From contig WRBV01000001.1 of the NCBI GenBank assembly GCA_009784375.1, positions 18,546 through 82,545 on the forward strand: a stretch of 64,000 nucleotides of DNA, in the 5' to 3' direction. Below are positions 8,801 through 56,256 of the stretch, one piece after another. Every line of letters begins with the position of its first letter. Within the stretch, counting starts at the first letter, position 1. This DNA is from Bacillota bacterium (GTDB lineage: Bacteria; Bacillota; Clostridia; Christensenellales; UBA1242). Both the position numbers and the translations under genes were made by a program. The notes below the pieces were generated by a model. The model was not told where the DNA came from. It saw only the letters and a list, made by a program, of their open reading frames with translations, and did not search any database.

Positions 8801-9576
8801 CCCAAATGTGGTTCTTTTACACGGTTAAAGCCAAACATACCTTTTCGTTGCGGATGTTGCATTTTAAATCCAAACGTACGCAAATATGAAACAATATCAT
8901 CAATTGTTTTAAACTTCATTTCTTGCATGGTATCAAATTCTTGCACCATGTCATCTATGTCCAGATTAAAACGCTGGGCATATGCCATGATAAAGACTTT
9001 GTTAAATTGGATTTGTTCATCTGCTTTTAGTTCGATAATCGCTGTTGTCTCGTTCTCTATGTGTATCACCGCTGGGAAAAGCAAAAGTGGCGCACGGACA
9101 ACGGTCTCTCGCCCAATACAACCCTCGACAAACGGATAACCAATAAATAATTCATATCGACCAGTCTCACTTGCGATTTCTTCGATTTCACGCTTGAGCA
9201 ATTTCAAATCGTTGACTTGGGATATTATTATCTTTTTTTCTTCGTCACGCTGGATACGTGCACGACGTAAATTTTCATTAGCAACTTCCGCCTTTTTCAT
9301 AGGGCGTTCGTCCTTATATTGTGCCTTTACCACCTTTTCAACGTCAAGATTACGACAAATTCGCTCCTTTGAATCCTTGTTTACAAGAGCATATGTCGTA
9401 CGCTTTTTGTTCCACAAAAAATCATGGAAATCATCAATCGCCTTGTAATCTCCATCCAAAATTCTGCCTATGTCATAGGCGGTTTTTTTACTTACACTCT
9501 TAGAGTACAAGCTTCGGCTTCGTCCACTTATTTCAACAAGCCTGTCACGGTAATATCTATAAATTTTCTTCACCAT
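5839..9576 (-). CDS. large SF1 (Upf1/DNA2-like) helicase with C-terminal Vsr/DUF559-like restriction-endonuclease-fold domain
   Basis: Walker A GPPGTGKSQT, motif II FDEASQ, motif VI LNVAITRAKKK. C-terminal YLVGIECDD...ERYVFRTAFMESRGWKILRVWSRDWW. Confidence 0.8.
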   Translation of the reverse strand: MVKKIYRYYRDRLVEISGRSRSLYSKSVSKKTAYDIGRILDGDYKAIDDFHDFLWNKKRTTYALVNKDSKERICRNLDVEKVVKAQYKDERPMKKAEVANENLRRARIQRDEEKKIIISQVNDLKLLKREIEEIASETGRYELFIGYPFVEGCIGRETVVRAPLLLFPAVIHIENETTAIIELKADEQIQFNKVFIMAYAQRFNLDIDDMVQEFDTMQEMKFKTIDDIVSYLRTFGFKMQHPQRKGMFGFNRVKEPHLGDPIEVKHYSILGRFPLANAIYNDYRELEKRKGTAAIRSLLENREVGKIKNPDSNLYAVNSLDFAQEEAIEKLNQHGNMVIYGPPGTGKSQTLVNVITDALCKNKRVLVVSQKKAALDVIYNRLGILNDKVMYVTDPEKHKNDFYARTKATHLSIIETHALGDATNNETKYKEIKNTIDSEVEALQTISDTLFTPTAFGPSLQEMYAMSYIFGKDVTERQVYESMLQNPKVMALRYHELDNTIRVIKEKRKSDLYYKRLEMQAQNPLVNHIKNDLSVHTINTAKTFIDGFSGKKIVPFDMSRYPNARQLLAFYLENDLSSKSDLKPIVKFIAKIERKDAKQISDNFEQAMQGIKTYVDEFALLETILDKKGFAMTLENILYGNTLFLKMLSNALDNYVDVRDMNLNMQEMTDMEKLVLNFAYKNSKGLKCFKDVIEKLLHARVYHELVLAEDVYKNRLAKIMDFENMRTRIISLKEEQRETVKQICLDMFKKNYSTLYKSTPENKNFFYQINKQQNLWTIRKLMDTYSDLMLTLFPCWLVSPENVSTIMPLKENLFDLILFDEASQVFIENTLPTIYRGRHIAIAGDNKQLRPTALFIRRYMGTDFYDLDLSTQAALEVESLLDLATSRYNSVNLNYHYRSLHEEFITFSNYAFYDCRLQIAPNLSKNIQTKPIERIKVSGKWIDRKNKEEAIEIVKLLKKLLNSRKSNETIGIVTFNAEQENLIEDLVDKESLKDEKFRNQLLKEKNRRENGEDVSIFVKNIENVQGDERDIIIFSIGYAQNEHGKVISHFGPLNIEGGENRLNVAITRAKKKIYVVTSIEPEELNVDGTKNLGPKLFKKYLQYVRAVSAGKSKEVQYILESFRPSDMAQNKSIGIADEIKVALEKLGYSVEADLGNNSYKLSLAIYDKKFDTYLVGIECDDTAFRSSSSVLERYVFRTAFMESRGWKILRVWSRDWWLHRSKVISQIDKIAKKEQERLVLNNSKK

Positions 9577-23662: not shown

Positions 23663-24433
23663 TTATTTTGGTTGCCGTGAAAGAAATTCTTTTGCAAGTG
23701 CCTCGTATGCAAGTGCCCCAGGACATTTTCTATCATATAACGTTATTGGCATCCCATGACTTGGAGCCTCGGCAAGCCTTACATTTCTTGGTATTTTTGT
23801 TTTGAAAACCTTTTTACCAAAGAATTTTAATATTTCATTTGCAACTTGGTCTGTTAGCGAACTTCGTTTATCATACATAGTAAGTAATACACCATCAATA
23901 TCTAAACTTGGGTTAAGCCCTTGGCTGCGAATAAGGCGTACTGTGTTTATAAGTTGACTTACACCTTCAAGAGCAAAGAACTCACATTGAATAGGAATTA
24001 TAAGCGCATCAGCGGACGTAAAAGCATTTAACGTAAGTAACCCAAGCGATGGTGGACAATCAATACATATATAGTCATAGCTTGAACGGATTTGATTCAG
24101 ATATTTTTTCAATATGCGTTCGCGCCCACTCATTCTAACAAGCTCTACCTCTGCACCTGCGAGATCTACTGTTGCTGGAATAATTTCAAGGTTTTTTATT
24201 TGTGATAATTGAACAGCCTCACTTATGTCGCATTGTTCACACAGAACATCATAAATCGTTTTTGTGCCTTTGGTCTTTTCAATGCCTATACCACTTGTCG
24301 CATTACCTTGTGGGTCAACATCTATTATAAGAACCTTCTTTCCCATCTCTACAAGAAACGCGGACAGGTTAACACAAGTGGTTGTCTTGCCCACTCCACC
24401 TTTTTGATTTGTGAACGCAATTATCTTTGACAT
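23663..24433 (-). CDS. parA: chromosome partitioning ATPase ParA/Soj
   Basis: MSKIIAFTNQKGGVGKTTT deviant Walker A, VLIIDVDPQGN, DYICIDCPPS. The track ORF starts 18 nt upstream. Confidence 0.9.
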   Translation of the reverse strand: MSKIIAFTNQKGGVGKTTTCVNLSAFLVEMGKKVLIIDVDPQGNATSGIGIEKTKGTKTIYDVLCEQCDISEAVQLSQIKNLEIIPATVDLAGAEVELVRMSGRERILKKYLNQIRSSYDYICIDCPPSLGLLTLNAFTSADALIIPIQCEFFALEGVSQLINTVRLIRSQGLNPSLDIDGVLLTMYDKRSSLTDQVANEILKFFGKKVFKTKIPRNVRLAEAPSHGMPITLYDRKCPGALAYEALAKEFLSRQPK

Positions 24434-24545
24434 TATTTTTAATAATACCACAGCCTTTGCAAAAATGAAAGTGTTTTACTTTATACTCTTGGTCGCACCA
24501 CCTAACTAATATATCTATATTTATTATAGATAATAACCCTACAAT

Positions 24546-31514: not shown

Positions 31515-32804
31515 ATGACCAATTTACTTTCAAATGTTGTATTCCCATCAGGAGCTGGAGGATTTCTTGGGCTTCGTGGTGTTGCGACCTCTTTCCTTGA
31601 ATGGGTTTATTCTTTTATCCCAAACTATGGTCTTGCTATTATATTTTTTGTTTTGTTACTTCGTCTCATGTTTTTGCCACTTGATTTTGGAACAAAGTAC
31701 TTTACAAAGAAAAACAGTATGCGAATGGCAGAAATCAAACCCGAGGAAGAAGCAATAAAAGCGGCACACGCAGGCGACCCTGTTGCCTATAACCGTGCCC
31801 GCCAAGCACTATACAAAAAACACGGTTACGGAATGGGTGGATTTTGTTTATTTACACTTTTGAACCTTGTAATCATGATGGTGGTTTTCATTTCTGTTTT
31901 CCAAGCATTGAACGGTATAAGTAACTTTAACATTAACAATCAATTCAAAGAACTTCAAGGCACATTTCATTATCATGCCGCCCGATATATTGATTCTCCA
32001 CATCATATAACAATACCGCCATTTGACACATCCGAACCTCCAGAATACTGGATAGCAGATTTCATGGACAGTCCATATTTCGAGAGCTGGCAAGAACATG
32101 CATATTTCGAAGACTTTGAAACAGCAATTAACCAAAGGTTTTCCGAAGTCAACGAAAGATTCCTGTGGGTTGCAAACGTATGGCGTTCGGACACACCATG
32201 GACACAAAGAACACTTTCATGGAGCGACTTCCAAAGCGCAGTTAGCGGGGTAGAAGGTTCGGTCACCCGAGGACTTAATTCATACCAACGTGCCGAATTG
32301 CAAGCCGAGTATAACTTTATTTTCGGAAACATTGACGAACACGGAACACGTTGGAACGGTATATTATTGTTAATCATATTGGCGGGTGCAAGTACATTCC
32401 TGAGCTCTTGGATTAATGCACGTCAAATGGCAAAAAACAAGCCGAAGCCCGAAGAAAAGAAAGAGATCGAAGCAGGCTATTCAATCCGTGATGTAAAGAA
32501 CCAAGCAGGCGATGGAACTGCTCCACAAATGCCAACTATTGACCCAAATGTGATGACTGGAAAAATGATGAAATTTATGCTTCCTGTTATTATGATTGTG
32601 GTTACTCTTATGAATACTGCTGCACTTGCTATTTACATTACCGCAGGTTCATTAATTGCAACTGGTCTTGGGGTATTGATGACTATGCTTGTTAACAAGA
32701 TTATAGAAAAACAAAAAAAGAAAAGAGCCGAACGCGGTCCCGACCTTTCTATAATTAACCCACATGCAAAATATTTCAAAACAAAGAACAAGGCTGAGAA
32801 ATAA
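31515..32804 (+). CDS. yidC: membrane protein insertase YidC (longer than typical Bacillota YidC, with an inserted soluble segment)
   Basis: Synteny after yidD. LAIIFFVLLLRLMFLPLDFGTKYF, multi-pass, basic C-terminal tail. Confidence 0.8.
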   Translation: MTNLLSNVVFPSGAGGFLGLRGVATSFLEWVYSFIPNYGLAIIFFVLLLRLMFLPLDFGTKYFTKKNSMRMAEIKPEEEAIKAAHAGDPVAYNRARQALYKKHGYGMGGFCLFTLLNLVIMMVVFISVFQALNGISNFNINNQFKELQGTFHYHAARYIDSPHHITIPPFDTSEPPEYWIADFMDSPYFESWQEHAYFEDFETAINQRFSEVNERFLWVANVWRSDTPWTQRTLSWSDFQSAVSGVEGSVTRGLNSYQRAELQAEYNFIFGNIDEHGTRWNGILLLIILAGASTFLSSWINARQMAKNKPKPEEKKEIEAGYSIRDVKNQAGDGTAPQMPTIDPNVMTGKMMKFMLPVIMIVVTLMNTAALAIYITAGSLIATGLGVLMTMLVNKIIEKQKKKRAERGPDLSIINPHAKYFKTKNKAEK

Positions 32805-32813
32805 TACTAAACT

Positions 32814-32840
32814 AAAAAGACGCACATGCGTCTTTTTTTA
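32814..32840 (+). terminator. intrinsic terminator after yidC
   Basis: AGACGC / GCGTCT stem followed by a T7 run. Confidence 0.7.
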
Positions 32841-32954
32841 TTCACCCAGGTGCACTACTTCATACATCCAGGACGACGGGAAAGTTTTTGCTTCTTTTCA
32901 AAAGAAGTGATACACTTGGTAATGTAACTATACAAAAAAGGAAGGAGTGACCAC

Positions 32955-33755
32955 ATGTCAAAAGTTCTAGAAATCACCGCAAAGACAATTGATGAAGCAA
33001 TAGCAGATGGACTTGAACAACTTGGTGCAAGTTATGACGAAGTAGAAGTAGAAGTCCTAAGTAACGGTGGAATGTTCAAAAAAGCAAAGGTCAAATTAAC
33101 ATTGACAAAAGAACCTGCAAAAGTTGAAGAAAAAAAGCCAGAAACAAAAATAGAGCCAGTAATAGAAAAACCAAAAGAAACAAAAAAAGAAGAAAAAACA
33201 CAAGTACCAGCAAAAGAAAAAATTGATAAACCAAAAATAGAAAGAGCACCAACTCCAAAAGGTGACGGCAAAAAACTGGATGAATGTGTTTATTTTGTAA
33301 CCGAGTTCCTTAGATTACTTGGTAATGATGCAACCGTATCAAACGAAGAAACCGAGAAATCATACATGATCCATATAAATGGCGAAGACGTCGGTCGTTT
33401 AATTGGAAAGGGTGGCGAGGCATTAAATGCGTTGCAAACACTTGTAAGTTCGGTTGCCATATCTCATGCAAATGGTGACAATAAACGAGTATTCGTAAAC
33501 ATTGAAAATTACAAAGAAAAGCGTACCGAAACATTGCAATCACTTGCAAAGAAAAAGGCAGAATACGTAAAAGAATCGGGGCGTTATGTAAAACTAGAAC
33601 CTATGATTGCACGTGACCGTGCCATTATTCATACGGTAATCCAATCAATCGAAGGCGTTCGCAGCTATAGCACAGGCGAAGGTGTCAACAGAAGGTTGGT
33701 AATCGCACCAGCAAACAAAGAACAAAAACAAGAAAATCCATCTTCAGAAGATTGA
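32955..33755 (+). CDS. jag: Jag/KhpB RNA-binding protein (Jag_N, KH, R3H)
   Basis: Synteny after yidC. N-terminus AKTIDEAIADGLEQLG, K/E/P linker, KH segment GRLIGKGGEALNALQ, R3H-like C-terminus. Confidence 0.85.
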   Translation: MSKVLEITAKTIDEAIADGLEQLGASYDEVEVEVLSNGGMFKKAKVKLTLTKEPAKVEEKKPETKIEPVIEKPKETKKEEKTQVPAKEKIDKPKIERAPTPKGDGKKLDECVYFVTEFLRLLGNDATVSNEETEKSYMIHINGEDVGRLIGKGGEALNALQTLVSSVAISHANGDNKRVFVNIENYKEKRTETLQSLAKKKAEYVKESGRYVKLEPMIARDRAIIHTVIQSIEGVRSYSTGEGVNRRLVIAPANKEQKQENPSSED

Positions 33756-40179: not shown

Positions 40180-40209
40180 TTGCCAAAATTTATTTTTTTA
40201 TAGTATAAT
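40180..40209 (+). promoter_or_regulatory. promoter of the six-gene operon (near-leaderless aguA)
   Basis: TTGCCA (40180-40185), 18-nt spacer, TATAAT (40204-40209). The ATG is at 40219 with no SD sequence. Confidence 0.55.
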
Positions 40210-40218
40210 TATCCATTA

Positions 40219-41205
40219 ATGAAAGCGGAGTTTAATAAACATGCCTGCACGGTATTGCTTTACCCACATGCATCAAAAAATGATGTATGGCGGTTAAATG
40301 CCAAAATTATCCGCAATGTAGTAATTGAACTTGCAAAAGTTGTATCTCAATTTGAACCAGTACTATTTGGATATGGTGATATACACCCATCAATAAGACA
40401 AAACAATATTTCCTTGGGCAGGATAGATTATGATGATATTTGGGTTCGAGATACTGGACCCATTCCTTTACGTAATAATAAATTGGTAATCTTTGGATTT
40501 GATGGATGGGGTGGACTCAGTTCGGATTTTGTACCGTCACAAATTGTTTCGTCTCAAATCGCTGACAAATTAAACCTTAGTATTGTCAATACAAGTGAAA
40601 TTGTATTAGAAGGTGGAAATATCTCGAGTGACGGCAAGGGAACGGCACTAGTTATCAAAGAACGCGTTCTTTCAAGTAATAAAAAATCACTTGACGAAAT
40701 AGAATCTGAACTTAAAAAATGCCTGGATCTAAACCGAATAATTTGGATCGAACGCGGGCTTATTTATGATGAAACCGAGACCCATGTTGATAACCTTTGT
40801 GTATTTGCAAGCGAAACTCAAATATTACTTGCTTGGACGGATGACAAACAAAATCCACAATATGACGTTGTACACGAAGCTTTTGATATTCTTTCAAAAA
40901 CCGAATATGAAATAATCAAAGTACCTATTCCAGACATATTTAAAAGAACCGAAGACGATTGCATTGGAATAAAAATAGTACAGGGCAACAAAGCAAGAAT
41001 TATGGGCGAACCAATCCAAGCAAGTTACATTAACTTTATGTTTGTGAATGGTGGAATTATATTGCCTCAATTCAATGCACCCCAGGATAAAAATGTGCTA
41101 GAATTATTTAAACAAATTTTCCCATCAAGACAAATCGTACCGTTTAATGCAAGAGAAGTAATACTGGGTGGTGGTGGATTGCATTGTATATCAAGAAACA
41201 TATAG
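40219..41205 (+). CDS. aguA: agmatine deiminase (PAD_porph / pentein family)
   Basis: DIWVRDTGP, VLEGGNISSDGKGT, ETETHVDNLCVF, ASYINF, C-terminal GGGGLHCISRNI with the catalytic Cys. Collinear with enterococcal AguA as recalled from memory. Confidence 0.85.
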   Translation: MKAEFNKHACTVLLYPHASKNDVWRLNAKIIRNVVIELAKVVSQFEPVLFGYGDIHPSIRQNNISLGRIDYDDIWVRDTGPIPLRNNKLVIFGFDGWGGLSSDFVPSQIVSSQIADKLNLSIVNTSEIVLEGGNISSDGKGTALVIKERVLSSNKKSLDEIESELKKCLDLNRIIWIERGLIYDETETHVDNLCVFASETQILLAWTDDKQNPQYDVVHEAFDILSKTEYEIIKVPIPDIFKRTEDDCIGIKIVQGNKARIMGEPIQASYINFMFVNGGIILPQFNAPQDKNVLELFKQIFPSRQIVPFNAREVILGGGGLHCISRNI

Positions 41206-41215
41206 GAGGACACAG

Positions 41216-43192
41216 ATGGACTATAAAACAAATTTGAAAGAAGCGATGAAACTTCTTATCGCCGACCAAGACGATACGTTCAAGGTTTATAAAGACCGAA
41301 AAATTCTCGGATCACTTGTTTTCAAGGATTTGTTGGATCGTCGGTCTGGTATTGACTCGAACGGTAATCCTTTGGAAGGCTTTTACCTTACACCAAAGAA
41401 CCGAGAAGTCGGATTAATGACCCGTCTTATTGGGCTGAATGGTGTATTGAATCTTATAAGCAGATATAACGTAGAACCGACTGATGCAGAAAAAAAGATA
41501 ATATACAAAGACATAAAAGATGTTCTTGCTTATATTGAAAAACATGGATATGATGCAAGCCCATACCTTGACGATGATACGAATGCATTTTATTTCAAAG
41601 AGAACCGAGTAGACGGCAAGAAAATATCTTATATGGACTCACGCACATGGGCGTTTTCTTTGTTTTTGGAAATTCGAAAACTTCACAACATAGAAACAGC
41701 AAAGGGTGGCAAAAAATTACTTGATTTCTCGCCTTTCATTGAAAGTGTTAACACAAGAATTAAGCTTGCTCTACGTTTTTTTGTTGATTCTGTTGTAATC
41801 GATAAAAATGGTGACGCTGTGGGTTGGGGCTTTGCAAATGGTTGTGAAGAACCTTCTTTGTATTTTACATATACATTACTCGAGGCATTTTCCGATTTCG
41901 AAGATGCGTGTTTGCTTGGAAGTAACCGTGACGAAGATTTCCTTGAATTTCTTAATGAGGGAAACACATATGACAAACCTATCGAGGATGAATTCCGCGA
42001 TAAATGTTTCCGTGTCGGAGACATTGCTTGGAATATGTTTGGTCATATAATCAAAGACGCATTCGTAAGTGACAGGTTCGATGACAAATTCCGAATTATC
42101 CCACGTGACGAGATTATTAATTCCTCACGCTCTAACGTTCTGTTTAACACAATTTACATCGTCTTTATTTGGCTTTATTCTTATAAAAACAACCACGAGA
42201 TTCGACCAACACAATGGGGCAACATAGAATCCGAAGATGCCATTGATAAATGTGAAGATGTAAAGGTCGCAATGGCACAAGCACTTTCACTTGTACAAAC
42301 ATTGTATGACGAATTAGTATCTGAAGGAAAAGACAGCATAGTAAGCCGTCACATTATTGCATTTGACCAAGACCACAAAATAGAAAGATTTGGAAAAGAA
42401 TTGAACGATGCAAACATATTAACGGCAAGTCTTTTGCCTATGCTTGCAAAGGCTAATAACCTTGTTGCGTTCTATATCCATAAATTCCCACAACAAAAAA
42501 TGGGTGTCTTATTTGAAAGAATGATTGGCGCCCGACTTTTAAGTGGAGAATGGCTATGGGCAAACCGATTGTTTGATTTACTTTCTACTGTTCGTTATAT
42601 CGGATCGATTGCCGATTTTTACGATTACTATGATACCTTTGAAAAGAAATATGCCGAAAAATCTACATCAACATCCAAAATGAAGAAGGATTTAACGGAC
42701 GAACTTAAACGTGAATTAGAACCAGCAATTGCAAAAGACGTACGACAAAAACTTGCAGCAAAACATAAACAAGACCTTGATGAAATGCAAGCACGTAATG
42801 AATTAAATTTCCCAATCGAAGTTCAAATCAACAAACGCGTAAACGAAATTGTTGACAAGCGGGTAATGGAAATTATCGGAACAATGTTCAATGATTTTGC
42901 AAAGTTTAACAAGCAAAAAGGCAAGAATGAAAAAGCATCAATGACCGAAGAGAATGCAAAGGTTTATGCGGCACTTAATGAATATGTCATGAGCCACTTT
43001 GACCAACCACTTAAAAAAGCAAGTGATGTAACAGGTAAAGCATCAATTGATTTATTGGGTGCGGCAAACATCGATATTATGACGGCGGCAAAAGAATTCT
43101 TTGAATTCACCGCAGACAATATGGAAAGAAAAGGTTTAAGTAAATTATCACTTGCTAACATATTTGAATTAATAAAAAAGGAAAAGGAGTAA
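41216..43192 (+). CDS. 658-aa protein: N-terminal alpha/alpha-toroid-like repeats plus K/E-rich helical C-terminal third; function unknown
   Basis: AGGAGG RBS, 10 nt after the aguA stop. SYMDSRTWAFSLFLE and DAVGWGFANGCEEPSLYFTYTLLEAF resemble terpene-cyclase/prenyltransferase-type repeats. Track ORF start 41168 rejected. Confidence 0.6.
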   Translation: MDYKTNLKEAMKLLIADQDDTFKVYKDRKILGSLVFKDLLDRRSGIDSNGNPLEGFYLTPKNREVGLMTRLIGLNGVLNLISRYNVEPTDAEKKIIYKDIKDVLAYIEKHGYDASPYLDDDTNAFYFKENRVDGKKISYMDSRTWAFSLFLEIRKLHNIETAKGGKKLLDFSPFIESVNTRIKLALRFFVDSVVIDKNGDAVGWGFANGCEEPSLYFTYTLLEAFSDFEDACLLGSNRDEDFLEFLNEGNTYDKPIEDEFRDKCFRVGDIAWNMFGHIIKDAFVSDRFDDKFRIIPRDEIINSSRSNVLFNTIYIVFIWLYSYKNNHEIRPTQWGNIESEDAIDKCEDVKVAMAQALSLVQTLYDELVSEGKDSIVSRHIIAFDQDHKIERFGKELNDANILTASLLPMLAKANNLVAFYIHKFPQQKMGVLFERMIGARLLSGEWLWANRLFDLLSTVRYIGSIADFYDYYDTFEKKYAEKSTSTSKMKKDLTDELKRELEPAIAKDVRQKLAAKHKQDLDEMQARNELNFPIEVQINKRVNEIVDKRVMEIIGTMFNDFAKFNKQKGKNEKASMTEENAKVYAALNEYVMSHFDQPLKKASDVTGKASIDLLGAANIDIMTAAKEFFEFTADNMERKGLSKLSLANIFELIKKEKE

Positions 43193-43195
43193 TTC

Positions 43196-44089
43196 ATGGA
43201 AATAATTACATTTTGGTCGTATAAAGGGGGAGCAGGTCGAAGTTCAACCTGTCTTAACACTCTACCTTACTTGGTGGATGTTTTAAATGCGACCAAACAA
43301 TCACCATTACTTTTATTGGACATGGATTTGGATAGTGCGGGTATGACATATCTTCTTGATTTGGATAAACATTTTCAAAACAACGAAGTTTACGATATCA
43401 AGAGTTTTCTTAAAGGCGACGAGAATTGGTCCGAAAATCCAGCAGAGTCCCTTATGGAACACACATTGTATCAAAAGTTCGTACCCGTGGGTGAAAAGCT
43501 TGGTGTTGATAACGATGCTGTTATGTTTCTTGGTGTGCATGATGGAAAGAAAATAGACAACGCAGACATGACGGGTGCAAAAGAAGAAATTTTTGCAAAG
43601 TTCCGAAGGTTTTGCCGCAAGAATAAAATAAGCGCAGTTGTAATGGACAGCTCGGCTGGGACACAGTTTTCAGCAGAACTTGCAATAGGAGCCGCAACAA
43701 TAGTTGTAAGCTGCATGCGTGCAACTACACAATTCAGAACAGGAACATTTAATTATCTTGACCGATTACTTGTCGAACAGCCTGACAAAAAAATCATTGT
43801 TCTTCCAACCGTTGTTCCAAATGGTGAAAAGATAATCGACGACATGCCACAAAGAAAAACCACCGTCGAAGATATAAAGAAAAAAATTGAAACTTTCGGG
43901 CTTAAAAATGTAAAGCTTGATTTTGTCGAAGAAGAAGAACTTGGAATTAACGAAGTCGAGCGTTTCAAATGGCGTGAAGGTGTGTTGTACAAAATCTGCA
44001 AAGACCAAAAACTTGCCGAAGACGAAAAAATAGCCGTATCGCGTTATAAAAAACTTGCCGAAAAACTTGTGGAGGGCGATTATGACTAG
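43196..44089 (+). CDS. ParA/MinD-family (SIMIBI) ATPase with KGGxGR P-loop variant
   Basis: FWSYKGGAGRSS (signature Lys kept, GKT replaced by GRS), LLLLDMDLDSAG (switch I-like), AVVMDSSAGT (Walker B-like). The RBS AAGGAG lies inside the upstream gene's end. Confidence 0.75.
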   Translation: MEIITFWSYKGGAGRSSTCLNTLPYLVDVLNATKQSPLLLLDMDLDSAGMTYLLDLDKHFQNNEVYDIKSFLKGDENWSENPAESLMEHTLYQKFVPVGEKLGVDNDAVMFLGVHDGKKIDNADMTGAKEEIFAKFRRFCRKNKISAVVMDSSAGTQFSAELAIGAATIVVSCMRATTQFRTGTFNYLDRLLVEQPDKKIIVLPTVVPNGEKIIDDMPQRKTTVEDIKKKIETFGLKNVKLDFVEEEELGINEVERFKWREGVLYKICKDQKLAEDEKIAVSRYKKLAEKLVEGDYD

Positions 44090-46295
44090 TTACAACGAAT
44101 TTGCAAAAAAGATTAACAAAGAAATCAAATGCCCTAATCTTCGCGAGCTTTTGTTTGGAATGCCCGATGTCGAAGCCGAGGATTTAAAAGGTATTGGTAC
44201 AATCAACCGAATGTTAACATTCGGTTTTATGGTTGCATTTACCAAATGGAAAAATTGCATTATCGATGGTAACAAAATCCATCTTTCTCCCAATTCACGA
44301 CGTGTATTCGACGCATTCAAAAGCGTATATAACGGTGAAAACATCGAACTTGATTTGATAATTTACACAATGACTGAAATGCAACTTGATGAATATGGCA
44401 TAGGTAAACAATCCTATTTTTCCGATATCATAAGCGGGGCAGAAGACACGGTACAAATTCCTGCACTTCGTAACTTGATTAAAACATGGTTCCAAAGTGT
44501 AAAACGTGCCGAAAAAAATCAAGAAATATTACTTGGCAAATTGGTTGGTTTATACAACGCATTTCCTTTCCTTAAAAATTCCAAGGTCAGCTTTGTAAAA
44601 CATGAAGAACTACCATTCGAATTAATTGAAATAGAATTGCGTCAAGGAAAAGTCCTAAAACCGTATATGATTATGGCTCGTAACGAGTTTGGTAATTTTT
44701 ATCTGCAATCTTATTCAATTTTACAAGACAATTTGTCACGACTTACCTATTCAACATTCGATGGAGTCGAATTATACCAGGAAGTCATCTTGACCAAAAT
44801 ATTTTCACGCGAGGCGGCAATTCGCAACCAAAACCAAGCCCCACGAAATATTATGGCTAAGTCACTTTTCTCACTCAGTTTTAAATATATAAAGAACTTG
44901 TCTCTTGCATTATCTGATACGGTAAAGCGCCAAACAATGCAAAAATTATATGAACATTTTTCACAAAAATACAGCGATGTATTCGAACTTGGATTCAAAA
45001 AACCCGACGAGCTTAACTGGGATAACATTATTACTATCCTTATAATAGAAGAAGGTCCAAGTGAATTACTAGAATTCATACTTGACTCGGATGGCTTTTA
45101 TTTTGATATGATTCTTGACAACTTGGAAAAGCGTTACCACGAACCTGGCTTTACACAAATGGTAAAACTAGATTATGAAAAAACCCAAGCTCAAGAACTT
45201 GCCGTATTAAAAAGCTATATAGACGATAACAGCTCGATCATCAAGAATATAAGCAACATCAACAAGACACTAATGGCAAAGGGTATTATCAATGGACTTG
45301 CATCTCTTGAAAATAACCACAGAACAAGTAAAGCATTATTCGTCGAAAGTCTTGCCGTACGTATTAAAAACGTAGACAAAATTATTATGTCTAACGACAC
45401 TAACCGTAGCAAAACATTAAAAATTAACAAAGTACTTGAAAAGACTTTCCGATATGTAATTCCATTTTATTATGGAGTAATCGCATATCAACAAGAAAAG
45501 GAAGATTTGTTTTCCGAAATCGAAACAAAGAACTTCGCACTTGACAAGGTTGACAAAAACACAATTTTCTTGAAATGTGAAAAGAAATTTTTCGAAGCAG
45601 CCGAATCATCAATCAAATTACTTAACACAAAATCACTTGGCGAATTGGTGAGCGAATTCAGAACGCTTTGTAATTCTATTTCCACATCAAAAGGACGCAA
45701 AGTCGAATTGTCACCAAACGGACGCATGTTAAAAAGCGCAATCGGTCGTGATTATATATGTGCCGTTGAATGTTTCAATAAAGTTCTTGAAATTAAACCA
45801 GATGAAAGCATGGATTTATCAGACGCAAAAATCCCAACAGACATCGTTTCATTTATCAATAATGAAAAACATGACAAGGGTTATGGTACCGTTTACGCAA
45901 ACATCGTCTTGTTTAATAAATTCCTTATCAAGGTCAAGGAATTGTTATACTTCCTTATATATAACGAGGACTACCAACGCGAGATGATGCTTGGTCAACA
46001 GATTTCTTTTGATCCAATCTATCCATATGTAGTTTGCTATAGAACCAAGAGCGAAAACCGCGACGGCTACAGCGTCAACAGCTTTATCGTTTTTCCATCC
46101 GAAGAATCAATGTCAAGCGAGATTAAAATCTTGTCCGAACGCGACTATGAAATCAATGAAAAATATTATTGTATACCTAACCAAACAACATCGAATTCAC
46201 GATGGTGGATTGAACCGTTCCTTATAAGTTGTCGTAAATACGACCAGCTTGTACACTCATGTTTTAAAAAGAAAACACCCGAGGAGGAAGAGTAA
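44082..46295 (+). CDS. 737-aa protein of unknown function
   Basis: ATG overlaps the upstream stop (ATGACTAG) and follows a GGAGGG RBS. No motif recognised. Confidence 0.6.
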   Translation: MTSYNEFAKKINKEIKCPNLRELLFGMPDVEAEDLKGIGTINRMLTFGFMVAFTKWKNCIIDGNKIHLSPNSRRVFDAFKSVYNGENIELDLIIYTMTEMQLDEYGIGKQSYFSDIISGAEDTVQIPALRNLIKTWFQSVKRAEKNQEILLGKLVGLYNAFPFLKNSKVSFVKHEELPFELIEIELRQGKVLKPYMIMARNEFGNFYLQSYSILQDNLSRLTYSTFDGVELYQEVILTKIFSREAAIRNQNQAPRNIMAKSLFSLSFKYIKNLSLALSDTVKRQTMQKLYEHFSQKYSDVFELGFKKPDELNWDNIITILIIEEGPSELLEFILDSDGFYFDMILDNLEKRYHEPGFTQMVKLDYEKTQAQELAVLKSYIDDNSSIIKNISNINKTLMAKGIINGLASLENNHRTSKALFVESLAVRIKNVDKIIMSNDTNRSKTLKINKVLEKTFRYVIPFYYGVIAYQQEKEDLFSEIETKNFALDKVDKNTIFLKCEKKFFEAAESSIKLLNTKSLGELVSEFRTLCNSISTSKGRKVELSPNGRMLKSAIGRDYICAVECFNKVLEIKPDESMDLSDAKIPTDIVSFINNEKHDKGYGTVYANIVLFNKFLIKVKELLYFLIYNEDYQREMMLGQQISFDPIYPYVVCYRTKSENRDGYSVNSFIVFPSEESMSSEIKILSERDYEINEKYYCIPNQTTSNSRWWIEPFLISCRKYDQLVHSCFKKKTPEEEE

Positions 46296-47095
46296 TGCTT
46301 CACATTATGCTTGATGCATATGATTGCACAGACACAAAGACCGCCGATTTGCGTGGTGTATATGAAACAATAACAAAAGTCGTCGATATTATGGGGGCAA
46401 AGACAATCATGCCGCCTGTACTTGTTCCTTATTATTATGGTACAACCGCAGATGACGACGGTATAAGTGCATTTGTATTATTAAAAGGTGGTCACTTTAC
46501 AATTCATACATTTCCATCCAGACAATGTTATTTCGTGGATATGATGTATGATGGCTTCATAAGCGAAGATAAATTCCGCGATGTTATGTTAAAAGAATTA
46601 CCTGCTACATCGTCAAGCGTCGCATCGGTAGACCGTCGTTTTTGTATTCAAGACCAAAACAAAGATATGCGCATTGACGAAGCAAAAGACTTTGGACCTC
46701 ATTATATGATTAAAAGCAATGAAAAGATTGATCTTGATATAAACAAGATATACGATGTTCTTGACCGCTTGCCGCCCCAAGTAAATATGACCCCTATTAT
46801 GCGCCCAGTTGTTATTACCAACAAAGTAAAAAATCCAAAGTACATAAGCGGTATAACAATGATAGCCGAGAGCCATATTGCAATCCATTATGACATCGAA
46901 AACAAGAGTCTTTTCGCAGATATTTTTTCATGCAGCTTTATCGACAGCAAAGATGTATCCGCAACACTTGCTCGTGAACTTGGAATAAAATGTGAAAATA
47001 TTCTTATTTCTCGTGGAACAAAACATACGAATCGCCATGCTCTGCGCGACCAAGTAATAACACGTGCAGCAAGATGGCGCGAAAACATAACATAG
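46295..47095 (+). CDS. tandem (pseudo-dimeric) S-adenosylmethionine decarboxylase-fold protein, pyruvoyl-type; substrate unknown
   Basis: N-half GISAFVLLKGGHFTIHTFP (no Ser). C-half ISGITMIAESHIAIHYD..ADIFSCS. Compare class-1 SpeH/SpeD [26 protein letters not shown]. Start overlaps the upstream stop (TAATG). Confidence 0.7.
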   Translation: MLHIMLDAYDCTDTKTADLRGVYETITKVVDIMGAKTIMPPVLVPYYYGTTADDDGISAFVLLKGGHFTIHTFPSRQCYFVDMMYDGFISEDKFRDVMLKELPATSSSVASVDRRFCIQDQNKDMRIDEAKDFGPHYMIKSNEKIDLDINKIYDVLDRLPPQVNMTPIMRPVVITNKVKNPKYISGITMIAESHIAIHYDIENKSLFADIFSCSFIDSKDVSATLARELGIKCENILISRGTKHTNRHALRDQVITRAARWRENIT

Positions 47096-48660
47096 GAGGC
47101 TTTGTGGACGGTAAAATCGTAAAACAATTTACAAAGTTTATTTATCCATTTAAATACCATAAACCTGATACAACCTGTCGTATATTCGAGGAGATACAAA
47201 GTTCAAAGGGTAACCCCATTCGTATCTGGGATTGTTTTGGAATAGATGGTCAAGATCTTCACGAAGAAATCGCCAATCTATATTCATTCCATGAAACTCG
47301 TGAACGTATCGCCGACTGTTTTCAACTTGGCATACATAACAAATGCCGTGAAGCAATTGGGCTGCCTCCCAAGGCAACAGACAATATAACATTCACAATG
47401 CGTGGAAGAAAAGACACAGTAAATATCAGCATTCCCAATGTCCGTGTTTATTTATTTGAATCCGAAGTTGGTTTTATCGAAGTGGAATGTGAATACCAAA
47501 CACAAAACATTGAAGATTACATTGACTGTAATTACTTTATAAGCGAAATCAAATCAGAAAAAAATACTTTCACAATGCAAAGAAGAATATCGGCAACCGA
47601 AAAATTCGTTTCAACATTCACTATGGAAGACTTAATCAAAAATGTACTTTACTATGTCGGCGACGACATTCGATTTTTTGACAATGTCGGAAAAGAATTC
47701 AACGAGAAAAAACCCATTATTTATTCTTACCTGCTGCTTGATAAGAAGCCCACAAATTTGGAACAAATAATCTATTATGCTCGAAAGAATTATAAAGCAA
47801 GCTATAAACCACCAGCATCCGACTTTATTATCGAAGGCAACCCTCAAGTTTATCAAACATTCGACAACTCATATTGGGGGACAAGCCAATACGGGACAAC
47901 CAATATAAGCTTTCTTGTCGGCGACAGGCAAACTGATGAATTCTTTCACAATAATTTTGTATATAAACTTAATAACAGTTATTTTCATCTTTTCCTAAGT
48001 GTCTTGCACCAAAAATATGCAACCCGACTTCTCACGACAAAAATGAGCCACCTTGACAAGGTTGTTAAAGACTATGAAATCATGCAACAACAAGCATGCC
48101 AGGCAAGGGAATACCAGGCCCAATCGGCATCTCTTAAATTCCGTGCATTTTTTAATGTCCCATCCAACATTGAACATGTTAACCGCTATTATGATCTTGT
48201 AACACATACTTTTGAAATTGAAAAAATTTACCAAAGTTTTAACGAAGATTTAAACAGTATTATTTCCCTGTCCGATACGTACACAGCAAAAAGCAATGAA
48301 TACCAAAGAGAGAAAAAAGAACTGGAACGAAAGAAAATCGGTGTATATGTTCTTCTATTCGGTACGATTATATCGGCTGTAACTATGTTAAGTTCTGTAT
48401 GGACTGTTATCGAAAAAATTGCTGGGGAACCAGTAAGAGTTGGCTCGCCCCTTATGATTATTATCTTTTCAGCACTCTTGTTATTAATAACTGTAGCGGC
48501 TGCAAATGTGTTTATACGAATTCATGAGATAAAAGAAGCATCTTACCAACTTGAAGAACAAAAAAGAACGGGCGAACTTGGAAAAGATTGTATTCGTAAA
48601 AAAAGAAGAAAATATATCAGAATAAAGGACAAAGAACACCTGCAAAAAGAATCTGAATAA
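47074..48660 (+). CDS. membrane protein with CorA-like topology (large soluble N-domain, coiled coil, two C-terminal TM helices, basic tail); no GMN motif
   Basis: TM1 IGVYVLLFGTIISAVTMLSSVWTVI, TM2 LMIIIFSALLLLITVAAANVFI, tail RKKRRKYIRIKDK. Alternative GTG start at 47104 after an AGGAGG. Confidence 0.6.
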   Translation: MARKHNIGGFVDGKIVKQFTKFIYPFKYHKPDTTCRIFEEIQSSKGNPIRIWDCFGIDGQDLHEEIANLYSFHETRERIADCFQLGIHNKCREAIGLPPKATDNITFTMRGRKDTVNISIPNVRVYLFESEVGFIEVECEYQTQNIEDYIDCNYFISEIKSEKNTFTMQRRISATEKFVSTFTMEDLIKNVLYYVGDDIRFFDNVGKEFNEKKPIIYSYLLLDKKPTNLEQIIYYARKNYKASYKPPASDFIIEGNPQVYQTFDNSYWGTSQYGTTNISFLVGDRQTDEFFHNNFVYKLNNSYFHLFLSVLHQKYATRLLTTKMSHLDKVVKDYEIMQQQACQAREYQAQSASLKFRAFFNVPSNIEHVNRYYDLVTHTFEIEKIYQSFNEDLNSIISLSDTYTAKSNEYQREKKELERKKIGVYVLLFGTIISAVTMLSSVWTVIEKIAGEPVRVGSPLMIIIFSALLLLITVAAANVFIRIHEIKEASYQLEEQKRTGELGKDCIRKKRRKYIRIKDKEHLQKESE

Positions 48661-48741
48661 AAAGAAAGCCGACTTTGTCGCGTTGCTCTGAGTTTAATGC
48701 ATTTCTTGGATTTTAAAATATTGTTAAATAATTCCCAACAA

Positions 48742-48770
48742 ACGAGCCGAATGGGCTCGTTCTATATTTC
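48742..48770 (+). terminator. possible terminator of the six-gene operon
   Basis: ACGAGCC / GGCTCGT stem with only a weak T-tract. Confidence 0.4.
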
Positions 48771-52592: not shown

Positions 52593-53813
52593 ATGGCAGA
52601 CACACCTTTTCCACAGAGTAACGACATGTTACTTTTTACGTTTTCAGCAGGTCCGACAATTAATCTATTTAATCTTGATGTTACGACTGTAAACGCTACA
52701 CTACAAAACAACTTACCCTTCACAGGGCAAACTGTTGCCTTGGCTTTTAACGCCCAGGATGACTTTGTATATACGTGTGTATATAATTCGGAACCCCCTG
52801 ATACAGGAAAGCTTGTTGACATTGTTCGCTTGGACAGCGATTTAAATACAACTTCGCTTGGGCTGCCAGACGGATTACCAGTTACTACTGCTGGTACCTA
52901 TTACTATGCAAGCTATATCGATAAAGATGGTTTTTGGTTTCTTTCAACCAATGGTGCAACAAGTTTTTATGTAATAGACATGCGTCCAGGTTCACCGACT
53001 TTTTTCAAGTTAGTTGACCCAACCAATGGATTTCAAGAACAGACAGGCAATTATGGAACTCCATTTGTTTCCATGCCCCCTATTCCTGTTGGCGGCAGCA
53101 GAACAACATGGGTCAGAGCATCTGATGGATTATTGTATCAAGTTTACTCGTCTTATAATACAAGTACGCAAATTACAACTTTCGGATTTATTTCTATTGA
53201 CCCAACAACGGGTATTGCTGGACAGGCTTCTGGTGGACCATGGACTATTCCATCACTTGATGCTATTTTTGCTATGACAATAGATTCGAATGATACTATT
53301 TATATAGTAACTGGGTATGGAAAATTATTTTTTACTTTTGAATTTTCAAATGGCATAATAACTGGACAAAATTTGGGAACAGTTGATATTGGCACTTATA
53401 TTCCGTACGGTGCTGCTATGAATCCACTTGCGGATCCTGGGTCGTCAACTGTGCCGAACTTTGCCCAATGGGATGTAACCGATTGCGATGGCATAACCAC
53501 CACCATGTCAAGTAACACAACAACAGTTGAAGTCGTTGATGTAGAAATAACAAAAACAGCAAGTTGCTCATGGGTATTGAAGGGTGGTGTCATTTCATAC
53601 TGTGTAACTCTGAGTAACCAGAGCGATATAGACCTTGTTGACACTTTATTCCGCGACACCCTTAATTCAAGACTTGTATATGTAACAGGAAGCTTTACCG
53701 TCGACGGAGTTGAAACAACACCTTTAACAAGCGGTCAAACAATATCATATGAATTGGATCTTAATGCAAAAACAATAAAAACTATTTGTTTCAAAGCACG
53801 ACTTCGTGTTTAA
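52593..53813 (+). CDS. DUF11-type (conserved repeat domain) C-terminal protein with uncharacterised ~300-aa N-domain, no signal peptide
   Basis: C-terminus VEITKTASCSWVLKGGVISYCVTLSNQSDIDLVDTLFRDTL...VYVTGSFTVDG resembles DUF11. Confidence 0.55.
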   Translation: MADTPFPQSNDMLLFTFSAGPTINLFNLDVTTVNATLQNNLPFTGQTVALAFNAQDDFVYTCVYNSEPPDTGKLVDIVRLDSDLNTTSLGLPDGLPVTTAGTYYYASYIDKDGFWFLSTNGATSFYVIDMRPGSPTFFKLVDPTNGFQEQTGNYGTPFVSMPPIPVGGSRTTWVRASDGLLYQVYSSYNTSTQITTFGFISIDPTTGIAGQASGGPWTIPSLDAIFAMTIDSNDTIYIVTGYGKLFFTFEFSNGIITGQNLGTVDIGTYIPYGAAMNPLADPGSSTVPNFAQWDVTDCDGITTTMSSNTTTVEVVDVEITKTASCSWVLKGGVISYCVTLSNQSDIDLVDTLFRDTLNSRLVYVTGSFTVDGVETTPLTSGQTISYELDLNAKTIKTICFKARLRV

Positions 53814-53937: not shown

Positions 53938-54013
53938 GGGAACTTAGCTCAGCTGGTAGAGCATTCGGCTTACATTCGAACGGTCGGGGGTTCGAGCCCC
54001 TCAGTTCCCACCA
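53938..54013 (+). tRNA. tRNA-Val (TAC), CCA encoded
   Basis: Acceptor GGGAACT/AGTTCCC, D-arm GCTC-AGCTGGTA-GAGC, anticodon loop CTTACAT, T-arm GGGGG-TTCGAGC-CCCTC. Confidence 0.9.
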
Positions 54014-55596
54014 AACAAGGTACGTGCCAAACCGTCAAGGACGGCGAGCGTACCTTTTTCGTTGCCTATACTGTTAATAGCATTATCGGTGGTTTCCTTG
54101 TCGATGGTGATTTTGTTTCCACCACCGTTTCCGTCAATGGATAACCAAACAACAATACGGTCATCGTAAATATAGCAGGCACTTACAAGGTCATCATACA
54201 ATCGCTTTTGAAAGTCAAGGTCGGATTCCAATTCCTGTGGTGTTATATAGTCGTTTATGAAATTGATAATATCTTGGGCGGTTGCTTGGATTCCGTTTTC
54301 AAATGTGATTTGAATTTTTTGCTCGGTCAGGTCGTTTATAAGAATAGTCAACTCGTCAATTTTGACTTGGCAAGACTTTTTGAGAGTGTCGCTTTTCATG
54401 GCAACGGCTTCAATGAACGCTTGGGTCGTGTTCTCGATTTGCTTGTGTGCGATGCCTATTTGGGTTTCAAGTGATTTGATTTGCTTTTCGCCTGTGCGGT
54501 CTTTGTAATATTCAATCACACTATCGGCAATTCTGCTGACTTTCTTTGGGTCTTTCAAGTATTCCAAAATGACTGAAATTATAAACAATTCCAGTTTTTC
54601 TTTTTGTTCCAATCGCTTTTGGCATGATTTGTTGTTGTGCTTTCTCTTGCGTGAGGATCGGCAACTGTAATAGCGGTACACCTTGTCAGGTTTATTGCCA
54701 CCGTCTGCGACCATGTTGCCACCACAAAGACCACAAAAGCATTTTCCAGTTAAATAATACGTTTGTTTGATTGAGTCCTTGCGTGTGTAAATTTTGTTTG
54801 CATCCAACATTTCTTGGACTTTATCCCACAACTTTTTATCAATGATAGCAGGATATATGTTCGTCCAAACTCTGCCAAACCTTTCAAACTCGCCAATGTA
54901 TTTGGGATTCCTAAACCAGTTATCAAACAACTTGTAATCAAATTTCTTTCCCCTGTATGTAATGTTCCGAGCATTCAAATCGTCAACAATGGCTTTCTTT
55001 GGTGTTCCGTCTGCGTATCGTTGGAAGCACTCTTTTATAATTTCGGATTCCGTTTCACAAATACCGACCTTGTGGATCGTGCCTTTCTTGCCAACTTTGT
55101 CGGTGTCCGTCAACTTGAAACCATACAAGATTTTTGTGCCTAAATATGTGCCGTTTTCAAGTGCGGTTATCATGCCGTCACGAACTCGCTTTGATAATCG
55201 TTGACTGTACTTTTCGTCATTCCATTCCAAAAACATTTCGTATATTTCGCCACCTTCGTCATCGCTGACTGGCTCTGTGGCACTTACAACACGAACACCG
55301 TGATCCCTGCGTAATTGTGCTTTGTACAACATACTATCGTGGCGGTTACGTGCAAAGCGGTCAAACTTGTATACAAGGATGACTTGAAATATTTTTAACC
55401 CTGCCTCGTCAACCATGTTTTGAAATTCAGGACGGCGGTCATTCGTTCCTGTCCTTGCTTTGTCGTTGTAAACCTTTACAATCTTGTAACCCATCTTTTC
55501 GGCGTGTTCTTTACACACCCTGATTTGTCCGTCGATGCTTTGTTCGTTTTGTCCAACAGATGAAAATCTTGCGTAGATGACTGCGTTGTTGTTCAT
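54001..55596 (-). CDS. large serine recombinase (531 aa)
   Basis: MNNNAVIYARFSSVGQNEQSIDGQ (catalytic Ser region), DRFARN, recombinase domain, zinc ribbon CGLCGGNM..YYSCRS, coiled-coil C-terminus. AAGGAG RBS. The track ORF extends to 55722. Confidence 0.9.
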   Translation of the reverse strand: MNNNAVIYARFSSVGQNEQSIDGQIRVCKEHAEKMGYKIVKVYNDKARTGTNDRRPEFQNMVDEAGLKIFQVILVYKFDRFARNRHDSMLYKAQLRRDHGVRVVSATEPVSDDEGGEIYEMFLEWNDEKYSQRLSKRVRDGMITALENGTYLGTKILYGFKLTDTDKVGKKGTIHKVGICETESEIIKECFQRYADGTPKKAIVDDLNARNITYRGKKFDYKLFDNWFRNPKYIGEFERFGRVWTNIYPAIIDKKLWDKVQEMLDANKIYTRKDSIKQTYYLTGKCFCGLCGGNMVADGGNKPDKVYRYYSCRSSRKRKHNNKSCQKRLEQKEKLELFIISVILEYLKDPKKVSRIADSVIEYYKDRTGEKQIKSLETQIGIAHKQIENTTQAFIEAVAMKSDTLKKSCQVKIDELTILINDLTEQKIQITFENGIQATAQDIINFINDYITPQELESDLDFQKRLYDDLVSACYIYDDRIVVWLSIDGNGGGNKITIDKETTDNAINSIGNEKGTLAVLDGLARTLFGGN

Positions 55597-56256
55597 GTTC
55601 TGTTTCTCCTTATTTAATTTTTTTGACTGACTGGCATATTGCCTTATCGGTCTTACCCAGCCAAAAGCAAAACCCAAAATTGCAGTCAAGGGCAACGAAC
55701 TCCTGAAAAATAGACCAATCAAAATTTGACCAGTCCATTGCTTTTCGTTGTGCGTTTTACCCCTTGACGGCGGTTTTGGGTTTTGTTACAAAAATGGTAA
55801 GACAGATAAGGCAACAATTTTGATGCTATCGTAATTGCGTCCTCACCATACGGATATGAATCATGCACTTGTCAGGTAGCGACCTGACAAACCCATTGTA
55901 TTTGTCCGTATATTGAGGGAAAGGAATTTTATTGCCAGTTCATTATACGGACAGGAATCGTACACTAGTCAAGTGGGGGCTTGACTGACCCCTACTTTTT
56001 GTCCGTATAGTGAGGGGTTGCGTTTAGTACTCATCTTGTCGGTAAGGTAAGGGGAACAACTGCCAAGAGCAAAGGCATTTGGGATTTGGACAAATGCCAA
56101 TTCCCCAACTTTATGTCATGCCAATAGCAAAAGCGGTTTAGCGAGGCGAAGGCAGGCAAAAAGTGGGGTGGCTTGTCCACCCACGTGCCTGCTCGCCTGA
56201 TCCGTGAGGGTGTAAAGTATTAGTGTTACCTTTACACCCTGCATTCTATCTTTAAC
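55597..56256. other. ~660-nt gene-free, hairpin-dense segment (candidate large structured ncRNA and/or regulatory/recombination DNA)
   Basis: Long imperfect palindrome at 55641-55812. Two tandem ~97-nt modules at 55841-56017. Hairpins at 56051-56106, 56145-56197 and 56207-56240 (11-bp perfect stem). Confidence 0.35.

Follow-up and report, generated by a model that had tools for sequence, protein, structure and literature searches.

An arginine P-loop ParA/MinD-fold ATPase and its two conserved partner proteins in a candidate conflict cassette of gut bacteria

What does a ParA/MinD-type ATPase do between two large proteins of no known family, with an arginine in place of the lysine of its phosphate-binding loop (P-loop)? 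The question is raised by a gene at 43196..44089 (+) in a 64,000-nucleotide (nt) stretch of a Bacillota contig (WRBV01000001.1), called here the window. An earlier sequence-only reading had described the gene product as a divergent ParA/MinD ATPase wedged between two large orphans. As judged from a structure model and profile comparisons, it is a ParA/MinD-fold (SIMIBI) NTPase of an uncharacterized clade beside the NCBIfam family NF047398, with the P-loop Lys fixed as Arg. The flanking proteins, named A and B here, form a conserved triad with the ATPase, and the triad is part of a six-gene operon with exchangeable modules. The best explanation of the whole, which we favor by a modest preference, is a candidate anti-phage or conflict cassette with a nucleotide-gated switch or scaffold as its core.

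The open reading frame (ORF) of this KGGxGR-variant ATPase extends from ATG to TAG over 297 aa, and the opposite strand is riddled with stop codons. The three motifs noticed earlier were all present: SYKGGAGRSS at residues 8-17, LLLLDMDLDSAG at residues 38-49 and AVVMDSSAG at residues 147-155. An identical protein is annotated as hypothetical in a Firmicutes metagenome-assembled genome (MAG; FWE45_00330), and 123 homologs were recovered by database search, the weakest with E 1e-27. Together with the invariant Arg described below, these matches show that the ORF is no chance product. The coupling to both neighbors proposed from the sequence is also real. The ATPase ATG lies 3 nt from the stop of A, with GGAG just 5′ of it. 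B begins, after a GGAGG, with an ATG at 44082, an overlap of 8 nt with the ATPase stop. Each start has a ribosome-binding site.

The AlphaFold2 (AF2) model of the ATPase had a predicted local distance difference test score (pLDDT) of 94.9 and a predicted template modeling score (pTM) of 0.93. Among its top 50 PDB matches in Foldseek were Soj, ParA, MinD, FleN, McdA and FlhG, with template modeling (TM) scores of 0.6-0.73 at ~16% identity (E 6e-9 to 1e-6 for Soj/ParA/MinD), and the fold bears out the ParA/MinD identity. Searches of PDB by sequence and profile gave nothing better than E 0.04. In Pfam, AAA_31 was matched with 15.6 bits, below the cut-off of 27, and CbiA was not matched. The window has a canonical Soj of its own (23663-24451, (-)), which carries KGGVGKTT and reaches 240 bits with AAA_31. 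When the two proteins were aligned with hhalign, KGGAGRSST fell opposite KGGVGKTTT and LLLDMD opposite LIIDVD, which places Arg15 at the position of the catalytic P-loop Lys and identifies D42/D44 as the Walker A′ pair. Lys10 stood opposite the signature Lys of Soj. The protein thus has the Soj/MinD fold, the signature Lys, the Walker A′ Asp pair and the Walker B Asp (D151) of the superfamily, and it lacks the canonical P-loop Lys and a Pfam gathering score for AAA_31 or CbiA. We consider the fold and motif claims nearly certain.

The best hidden Markov model (HMM) for the ATPase was NF047398, "KGGVGR-motif variant AAA ATPase", with 51 bits and E 2e-13 over profile positions 2-184 of 190. A variant family of this kind had been mentioned in the sequence-only reading; it exists, but membership falls short, as its curated cut-off is 90 bits. 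With KGGAGRS at residues 10-16, the ATPase has the KGGxGR motif of that family and matches nearly the full profile. What sets the cassette clade apart are its scores, a conserved C-terminal region (~240-297) and its own A and B partners. Six distant cassette ATPases also had NF047398 as their best HMM, with 43-66 bits. Because of the gap between 51 bits and the cut-off, we place the ATPase in a sister clade of NF047398 and do not call it a member. Literature searches returned no paper on the NF047398 family.

Soj, ParA, MinD and FleN (PDB 6iub, 8ray, 3q9l, 5j1j) share the fold, the signature Lys, the Walker A′ DxD and the Walker B Asp with the cassette ATPase, and some of its homologs are labeled "MinD-like ATPase" or "BcsQ". 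A paralog acting in chromosome or plasmid partition, or a MinD of cell division, would account for this likeness. However, no ParB, centromere, MinC or MinE partner was found at the locus, and the window already has its canonical Soj. The ATPase is embedded in a cassette with A and B, and it was absent from 72,556 plasmids. Unlike those relatives, which keep the P-loop Lys, it has two large proteins of no known family as partners, and no ParB, MinE, or DNA- or membrane-targeting partner. We therefore regard a partition or cell-division role as extremely improbable. Neither Pfam nor NCBIfam placed the protein in a partition or BY-kinase family. A partition ParA was rejected on the lack of a match to NF041546 (ParA_partition) or MinD models, and A and B had no helix-turn-helix or ParB domain. 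A BY-kinase was rejected because the C-terminus (...KLVEGDYD) has a single Tyr and no family was matched. BcsQ was rejected as well: TIGR03371/PF06564 was not matched, no bcs genes were nearby, and the JGI "BcsQ" labels on homologs are generic.

Is the Arg a family trait or a local accident? Loci with a relative of the ATPase were surveyed in one genome per GTDB species. A relative was present in at least 155 genomes, and the 80 best loci among them were retained; 89 loci were fetched, and 83 non-duplicate loci were analyzed by calling ORFs and matching them to the window proteins. Module counts below refer to these 83 loci, and motif counts to 84 loci. Arg occupied the P-loop Lys position in 84/84 loci, within the pattern KGG[AS][GC]R[ST], and no second GxxxxGK[ST] loop was found in any of their ATPases, so that no canonical GKT loop elsewhere takes its place. 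KGG[AS][GC]R[ST] was found in all full-length sequences among the 120 homologs listed, one being N-terminally truncated. Since the Lys is kept in the Soj of the same window and the Arg is invariant across phyla, the substitution is a trait of a divergent paralogous family and not a lineage quirk, as had been proposed. A sub-variant with Cys for the last Gly before the Arg (KGGSCR/KGGACR) occurred in 6/84 loci and in 3 of the 120 database proteins; this is another unusual substitution within the phosphate-binding loop.

The rest of the nucleotide site was strictly conserved. Among 53 diverse ATPase sequences with 29-72% identity to the window protein, the invariant residues included S8, K10, G11, G12, R15, N21, D42, D44, S47, G49, D151 and G155. 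A clade-specific C-terminal region (~240-297) was conserved too (F243, G250, I251, E253, R256, F257, W259, E261, D276, E277, Y284), and it is a candidate partner surface. From the invariant Lys10, Asp42/Asp44 and Asp151 we infer that the ATPase most likely still binds ATP and forms an ATP-sandwich dimer, with hydrolysis that would probably be slow or triggered by a partner. In P1 ParA, replacement of the equivalent Lys (K122Q) left ATP binding intact and abolished hydrolysis (PMC2950902), which argues for an ATP-binding, slow or conditional switch and not a dead protein. The canonical Lys is, on the other hand, the key ligand of the beta/gamma-phosphates. Other conflict systems are reported to contain "inactive MinD/ParA-like" domains (PMC7159879), and the Pfam AAA_31 score is a mere 15.6 bits. 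These points would suit a degenerate pseudo-ATPase that does not bind nucleotide and serves as a static adaptor between A and B. Such a protein would hardly keep its signature Lys, Walker A′ Asps, Walker B Asp and P-loop glycines invariant across this range of identities, and Arg preserves the positive charge; we consider the pseudo-ATPase unlikely. ATP binding with weak hydrolysis is what the sequence conservation suggests. This clade amounts to a natural experiment, in which Arg was fixed at the catalytic P-loop Lys and the rest of the site was kept, and it bears on how ATP binding and hydrolysis are tuned in ParA/MinD switches.

The two neighbors had been taken for orphans, a view that did not hold. 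A (658 aa, 41216..43192 (+)) and B (737 aa, 44082..46295 (+)) are obligate conserved partners of the ATPase across many genomes. A was directly 5′ of the ATPase in 76/83 loci, and a recognizable B was 3′ in most of those. Mean pairwise identity was ~30% for A and B, 42% for the ATPase and 48% for the SpeD-like protein described below. For A, B and the ATPase, pairwise distances were correlated with one another (0.83-0.89), which indicates that the three are inherited and diverge as a unit. We are highly confident of the A–ATPase–B triad, and we infer a physical A–ATPase–B complex.

Neither partner has recognizable relatives of known function. The start of A, which has a coiled-coil-rich C-terminal third, agrees with the NCBI model (P0163), and GGAGG lies 5′ of it. 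A profile of A searched against 1.84 billion representatives found 365 clusters, and 30 distant family members had no known domain. B had 42 homologs, all without Pfam domains. When A, B and the CorA-like protein of the cassette were compared with Pfam, NCBIfam, PADLOC and PDB sequences, as single sequences, profiles and all alignment members, nothing rose above noise, apart from a weak PADLOC match of the CorA-like protein. The AF2 model of B (pLDDT 82.6) began with an N-terminal helical domain and ended with a C-terminal beta domain; between them lay another beta domain and then a long helical region. Foldseek found no credible match for it in PDB or among the viral structures of BFVD (best E 0.017, TM 0.07).

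Variation in B gave hints on its organization. In 11 loci, all with a PAD gene, only the first ~240 residues of B were kept, and this points to the N-terminal domain as the essential part. In 10 loci (L035, L041, L049, L051, L052, L058, L060, L067, L069, L077) a GNAT acetyltransferase was fused to the C-terminus of B, giving genes of ~960-990 aa. In three others (L087-L089), the B position downstream of the ATPase was taken by a ~900-aa (~890-917) protein with a TIR domain and no detectable similarity to B. Together, the fusions and the TIR proteins suggest that the protein in this position offers its C-terminus as the docking site of the enzyme modules. B was split into ORFs of 548 and 128 aa in one Clostridia contig (L003, 10879-13095; L082 has the same sequence), and an intact 738-aa B (L004, 3992-6208) stands beside an ATPase identical to that of L003. 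The split reflects either a frameshift with pseudogenization or an assembly error.

The triad belongs to an operon that had been overlooked. Six genes on the plus strand, from 40219 to 48660, are joined by stops and starts that overlap or abut, with ribosome-binding sites of the GGAG(G) type, and their PAD-like, AdoMetDC-like and membrane genes recur elsewhere with swapped modules. Their order is PAD-like, A, ATPase, B, SpeD-like and CorA-like. Gene 1 (40219..41205, 328 aa) encodes a PAD_porph agmatine-deiminase-like, guanidino-modifying enzyme (Pfam PF04371, E 6e-80). B is followed by an AdoMetDC/SpeD-like pyruvoyl decarboxylase with tandem domains (46295..47095, 266 aa) and by a CorA-like membrane protein (47074..48660, 528 aa). 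A promoter-like site, TTGCCA-18-TATAAT, lies between the leuS stop and gene 1 (40180..40209, (+); 11/12 by consensus match). A terminator-like hairpin, likewise called by consensus, follows at 48741..48761 (+), with an 8-bp stem, 5 GC pairs and a T-rich tail.

All surveyed carriers were MAGs of uncultured bacteria from the guts of ruminants, rabbit, chicken or termite. Clostridia made up most of them, and the others were Bacilli/Erysipelotrichaceae, Cloacimonadota, Fibrimonadales and Treponema. When the neighbors of the closest homologs were tabulated, all six genes were found in unchanged order in Chitinispirillia and Clostridia MAGs, with a shorter version in a Cloacimonadota MAG, and the flanks differed each time. 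ATPases with 56-57% identity to the window protein occurred in different phyla. More distant ATPases (32-39% identity) were part of variant cassettes: TIR–A–ATPase–B–AdoMetDC, arginase-family–A–ATPase–B–AdoMetDC and PRMT-like–A–ATPase–B–CxxCxxCC. Across the survey, the gene before A was TIR_2 in 34 loci, PAD in 24, arginase-family (agmatinase-like) in 8, radical SAM/SPASM in 8 and PRMT-like in a single locus. The triad is thus accompanied by an optional PAD-like, agmatinase-like, radical-SAM or PRMT-like enzyme.

Two pairs of modules were mutually exclusive. A TIR gene was in or abutted the cassette in 61 loci and a CorA-like gene was present in 18, the window included; none had both. Only 4 loci had neither, three of them cut by contig ends. 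In the same way, 58 loci had a SpeD-like gene and 10 a GNAT-fused B, and no locus combined them. The TIR/CorA exclusion was revealed by the PAD loci with a short B, in which an extra TIR protein is encoded immediately 5′ of PAD and a CorA-like gene is lacking. These TIR genes were found in L017, L020, L024, L025, L028, L071, L074 and L076 (~580-600 aa) and in L005 (5777-6904). All 18 CorA-class loci had SpeD, together with PAD (10) or an agmatinase-like gene (8). In the radical-SAM class, TIR was 3′ of B.

The TIR proteins were closest to the PADLOC models of CBASS, pAgo and Thoeris TIR effectors. The CorA-like protein has a ~420-aa cytoplasmic domain and two C-terminal transmembrane helices (windows ~421-446 and 453-486). 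It matched the PADLOC "CorA-like" model PDLC01175 weakly (E 5e-6, residues 18-165), and neither Pfam, including CorA, nor PDB sequences. A plan that recurs in CBASS, Thoeris, pAgo and type III CRISPR accessory modules is a conserved NTPase core with alternative TIR and membrane effectors. It is this likeness of architecture that suggests a defense role, and we rate an anti-phage or conflict system, on architecture, as an even call.

The decarboxylase has kept its catalytic motifs. PF02675 was matched across two stretches of the protein (E 1e-26), as expected of a SpeD-SpeD tandem fusion. An alignment with the Aquifex SpeD (PDB 2iii) matched its processing Ser, His and Cys to AESH and FSC of the C-domain, and 59/59 SpeD-like orthologs had [EQ]SH and F[ST]C, the residues of self-processing. 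The C-domain therefore looks catalytically intact. The N-domain of the window protein is degenerate, with GGH for ESH and no Cys. In TIR-class loci it often has GSH, and there it may still be self-processing. Gene 1 reached 253-260 bits with the NCBIfam agmatine deiminase models TIGR03380/NF010070, for which the cut-offs are 382 and 483, and the C-terminal motif with the catalytic Cys (GGG.HC) was present in 25/25 PAD-like orthologs. The arginase-family gene had agmatinase as its best model, with 166 bits against a cut-off of 174.

Taken by themselves, an AdoMetDC-like decarboxylase and an agmatine deiminase or agmatinase spell out two known arginine-to-putrescine routes. SpeD homologs that decarboxylate Arg or Orn, as well as SpeD-SpeD fusions, have been documented, and agmatine deiminase or agmatinase genes in a genome were used to predict arginine decarboxylase activity (PMC10407285). 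The cassette might accordingly be read as a metabolic operon, for housekeeping or acid stress, that leads from arginine and agmatine to polyamines; its location between housekeeping genes in the window would agree with this. SpeD would then be an arginine decarboxylase and PAD or agmatinase would process agmatine, with the two-TM protein (TM here for transmembrane) as a channel and with A, B and the ATPase as regulators. However, 48/83 loci had a TIR gene and neither PAD nor agmatinase, and no N-carbamoylputrescine amidohydrolase, SpeE or antiporter was found within the cassette. Fast-evolving proteins with no detectable domain, over 1,600 aa in all (A and B have ~30% mean pairwise identity), are also atypical of metabolic regulators, and the distribution is patchy and crosses phyla. 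The polyamine operon is in our estimate quite unlikely. Genes for an "agmatine deiminase" and a "SAM decarboxylase" (SAM, S-adenosylmethionine) inside this cassette should, in these genomes, not count as a sign of polyamine biosynthesis in metabolic reconstructions.

The same enzymes can be viewed from the side of their protein substrates. PAD_porph, arginase and PRMT_C/PrmA each have members that act on peptidyl-arginine, and the radical-SAM variant had its best NCBIfam matches among maturases of peptides synthesized ribosomally and modified post-translationally (RiPPs), such as PapB and SCIFF. Citrullination of lasso peptides by PAD_porph enzymes has precedent (bioRxiv 10.1101/2020.07.16.207027). 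A RiPP-like or maturation system for arginine in peptides or proteins might use PAD for citrulline, the arginase family for ornithine, PRMT for methyl-arginine and radical SAM/SPASM for crosslinks. Its substrate would be A, B or an unseen small peptide, and the ATPase an assembly or chaperone factor. Yet TIR, the commonest companion (61/83 loci), is out of place in a RiPP pathway, and there is no conserved precursor-peptide gene. The best equivalog models of the PAD and arginase genes are the small-molecule enzymes agmatine deiminase and agmatinase (166 vs 174 bits for the latter), and an amino-acid substrate suits the pyruvoyl decarboxylase better. We judge arginine modification of this kind improbable.

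We thus return to the switch or scaffold of a candidate conflict cassette. Gated by nucleotide, the ATPase would serve as a switch or as a platform for assembly that keeps A and B together in one complex. The A–ATPase–B triad would sense or gate, and the TIR or membrane protein would execute. In PARIS (AriA/AriB) and Gabija, an ATPase holds its partners in an inactive surveillance complex, from which effectors are released on a trigger. The analogy is a functional one; the ATPases there are of the ABC/OLD type and the one here is ParA/SIMIBI, with no sequence relationship. Arginine and agmatine (or SAM) would be the targets of the decarboxylase/deiminase pair, whose part would be that of an accessory effector or a signal-processing step. 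Depletion of arginine or SAM, making or removing an amine signal, and self-protection are the options for it, and any specific mechanism with arginine, agmatine or SAM is doubtful at best.

Several points weigh against this reading. All of its support is computational. The window cassette lies among housekeeping genes (leuS, L11, L1) and in no defense island, and by qualitative comparison the flanks of the other loci are heterogeneous and mostly housekeeping too. No core component matches a validated defense system: the ATPase matched the PADLOC candidate PDC-M28B in the P-loop region alone, with 19-25 bits. The ATPase was not found in phage, plasmid (72,556 plasmids) or IMG/VR collections. 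The P-loop Arg could mean that nucleotide binding is lost, leaving a pure scaffold. Finally, the products of PAD and agmatinase differ, which argues against a single small-molecule signal, and Arg, Orn and SAM as substrates of the SpeD-like protein are not told apart by sequence; the main text of the SpeD study (PMC10407285) gives no residue rules for this.

A bolder version can be formulated, in which the cassette is an immune class of its own. An Arg-P-loop ParA switch with A and B as sensors or scaffolds would control chemistry derived from amino acids or SAM, polyamine-pathway enzymes having been recruited into immunity. Through the decarboxylase, with or without the deiminase or agmatinase, or else through the GNAT, a non-nucleotide amine (agmatine, decarboxylated SAM or a derivative, for example) would be produced or broken down, and as a signal it would gate the TIR NADase or the CorA-like membrane effector. 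Alternatively, the phage would be starved of arginine or polyamines. We consider this version rather unlikely. Enzymes of arginine, agmatine and polyamine metabolism are not established effector or signal chemistry in phage defense.

Published systems share some of these traits. The NTP-dependent conflict systems likewise have a ParA/MinD-like module with a non-canonical active site and TIR-type effectors (Kaur et al. 2020, PMC7159879). There, the module is a domain joined to a kinase or an AP-ATPase within ternary vWA-MoxR systems, whereas the cassette ATPase stands alone, its site is otherwise intact, and no MoxR or vWA gene accompanies it. The CorA-like topology and an enzyme of a SAM-utilizing family (AdoMetDC) recall the type III CRISPR CorA with SAM-AMP signaling (Chi et al. 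2023, PMC10600005), but the cassette has no Cas10 or CRISPR, its CorA match is partial and N-terminal, and Pfam CorA is not matched. The SpeD-like protein resembles known SpeD fusions in being a ~265-aa tandem with one degenerate domain and in its association with agmatine deiminase or agmatinase (Li et al. 2023, PMC10407285). Its degenerate N-domain and intact C-domain are the reverse of the arrangement in the Victivallis vadensis fusion, discussed as a model of how eukaryotic AdoMetDC evolved. Unlike the contexts in that study, SpeE, SpeY and AguB are missing, and TIR or CorA is linked instead.

In PADLOC-DB v2, A, B and the SpeD-like protein had no match, and TIR and CorA-like proteins matched generic effector models. 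Literature searches for KGGVGR, for AdoMetDC, agmatine deiminase or pyruvoyl enzymes with phage defense or TIR, and for ParA-like defense did not retrieve a description of the cassette. It is thus an undescribed cassette, with swappable TIR and membrane modules that are typical of immune systems and with two proteins, A and B, that have no recognizable relatives.

The flanking proteins of the surveyed loci comprised 104 Pfam families among 111 proteins, and apart from the extra TIR genes they were unrelated between loci. The patchy spread across phyla suggests that the cassette is horizontally mobile; as the phage, plasmid and IMG/VR collections gave no match, it is this distribution that speaks for mobility. 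In the window, leuS is upstream of the cassette and L11 and L1 are downstream, with yidC, jag and soj further upstream.

Other genes of the window were noted in passing. The yidC (60KD_IMP) and jag (Jag_N/KH/R3H) genes (31515-33755, (+)), with the nearby soj, suggest that the window is close to the chromosomal origin region. On the minus strand, a 1245-aa ORF extends over 5839-9576. A large serine recombinase gene (Resolvase, Recombinase and Zn_ribbon_recom; 54001-55722, (-)) lies ~5 kb downstream of the cassette, past L11/L1, and may be the edge marker of an integrated element. A gene at 52593-53813 (+), unrelated to the cassette, has DUF6923 and DUF11 repeats in its 406-aa product, which is probably a repeat protein of the cell surface.

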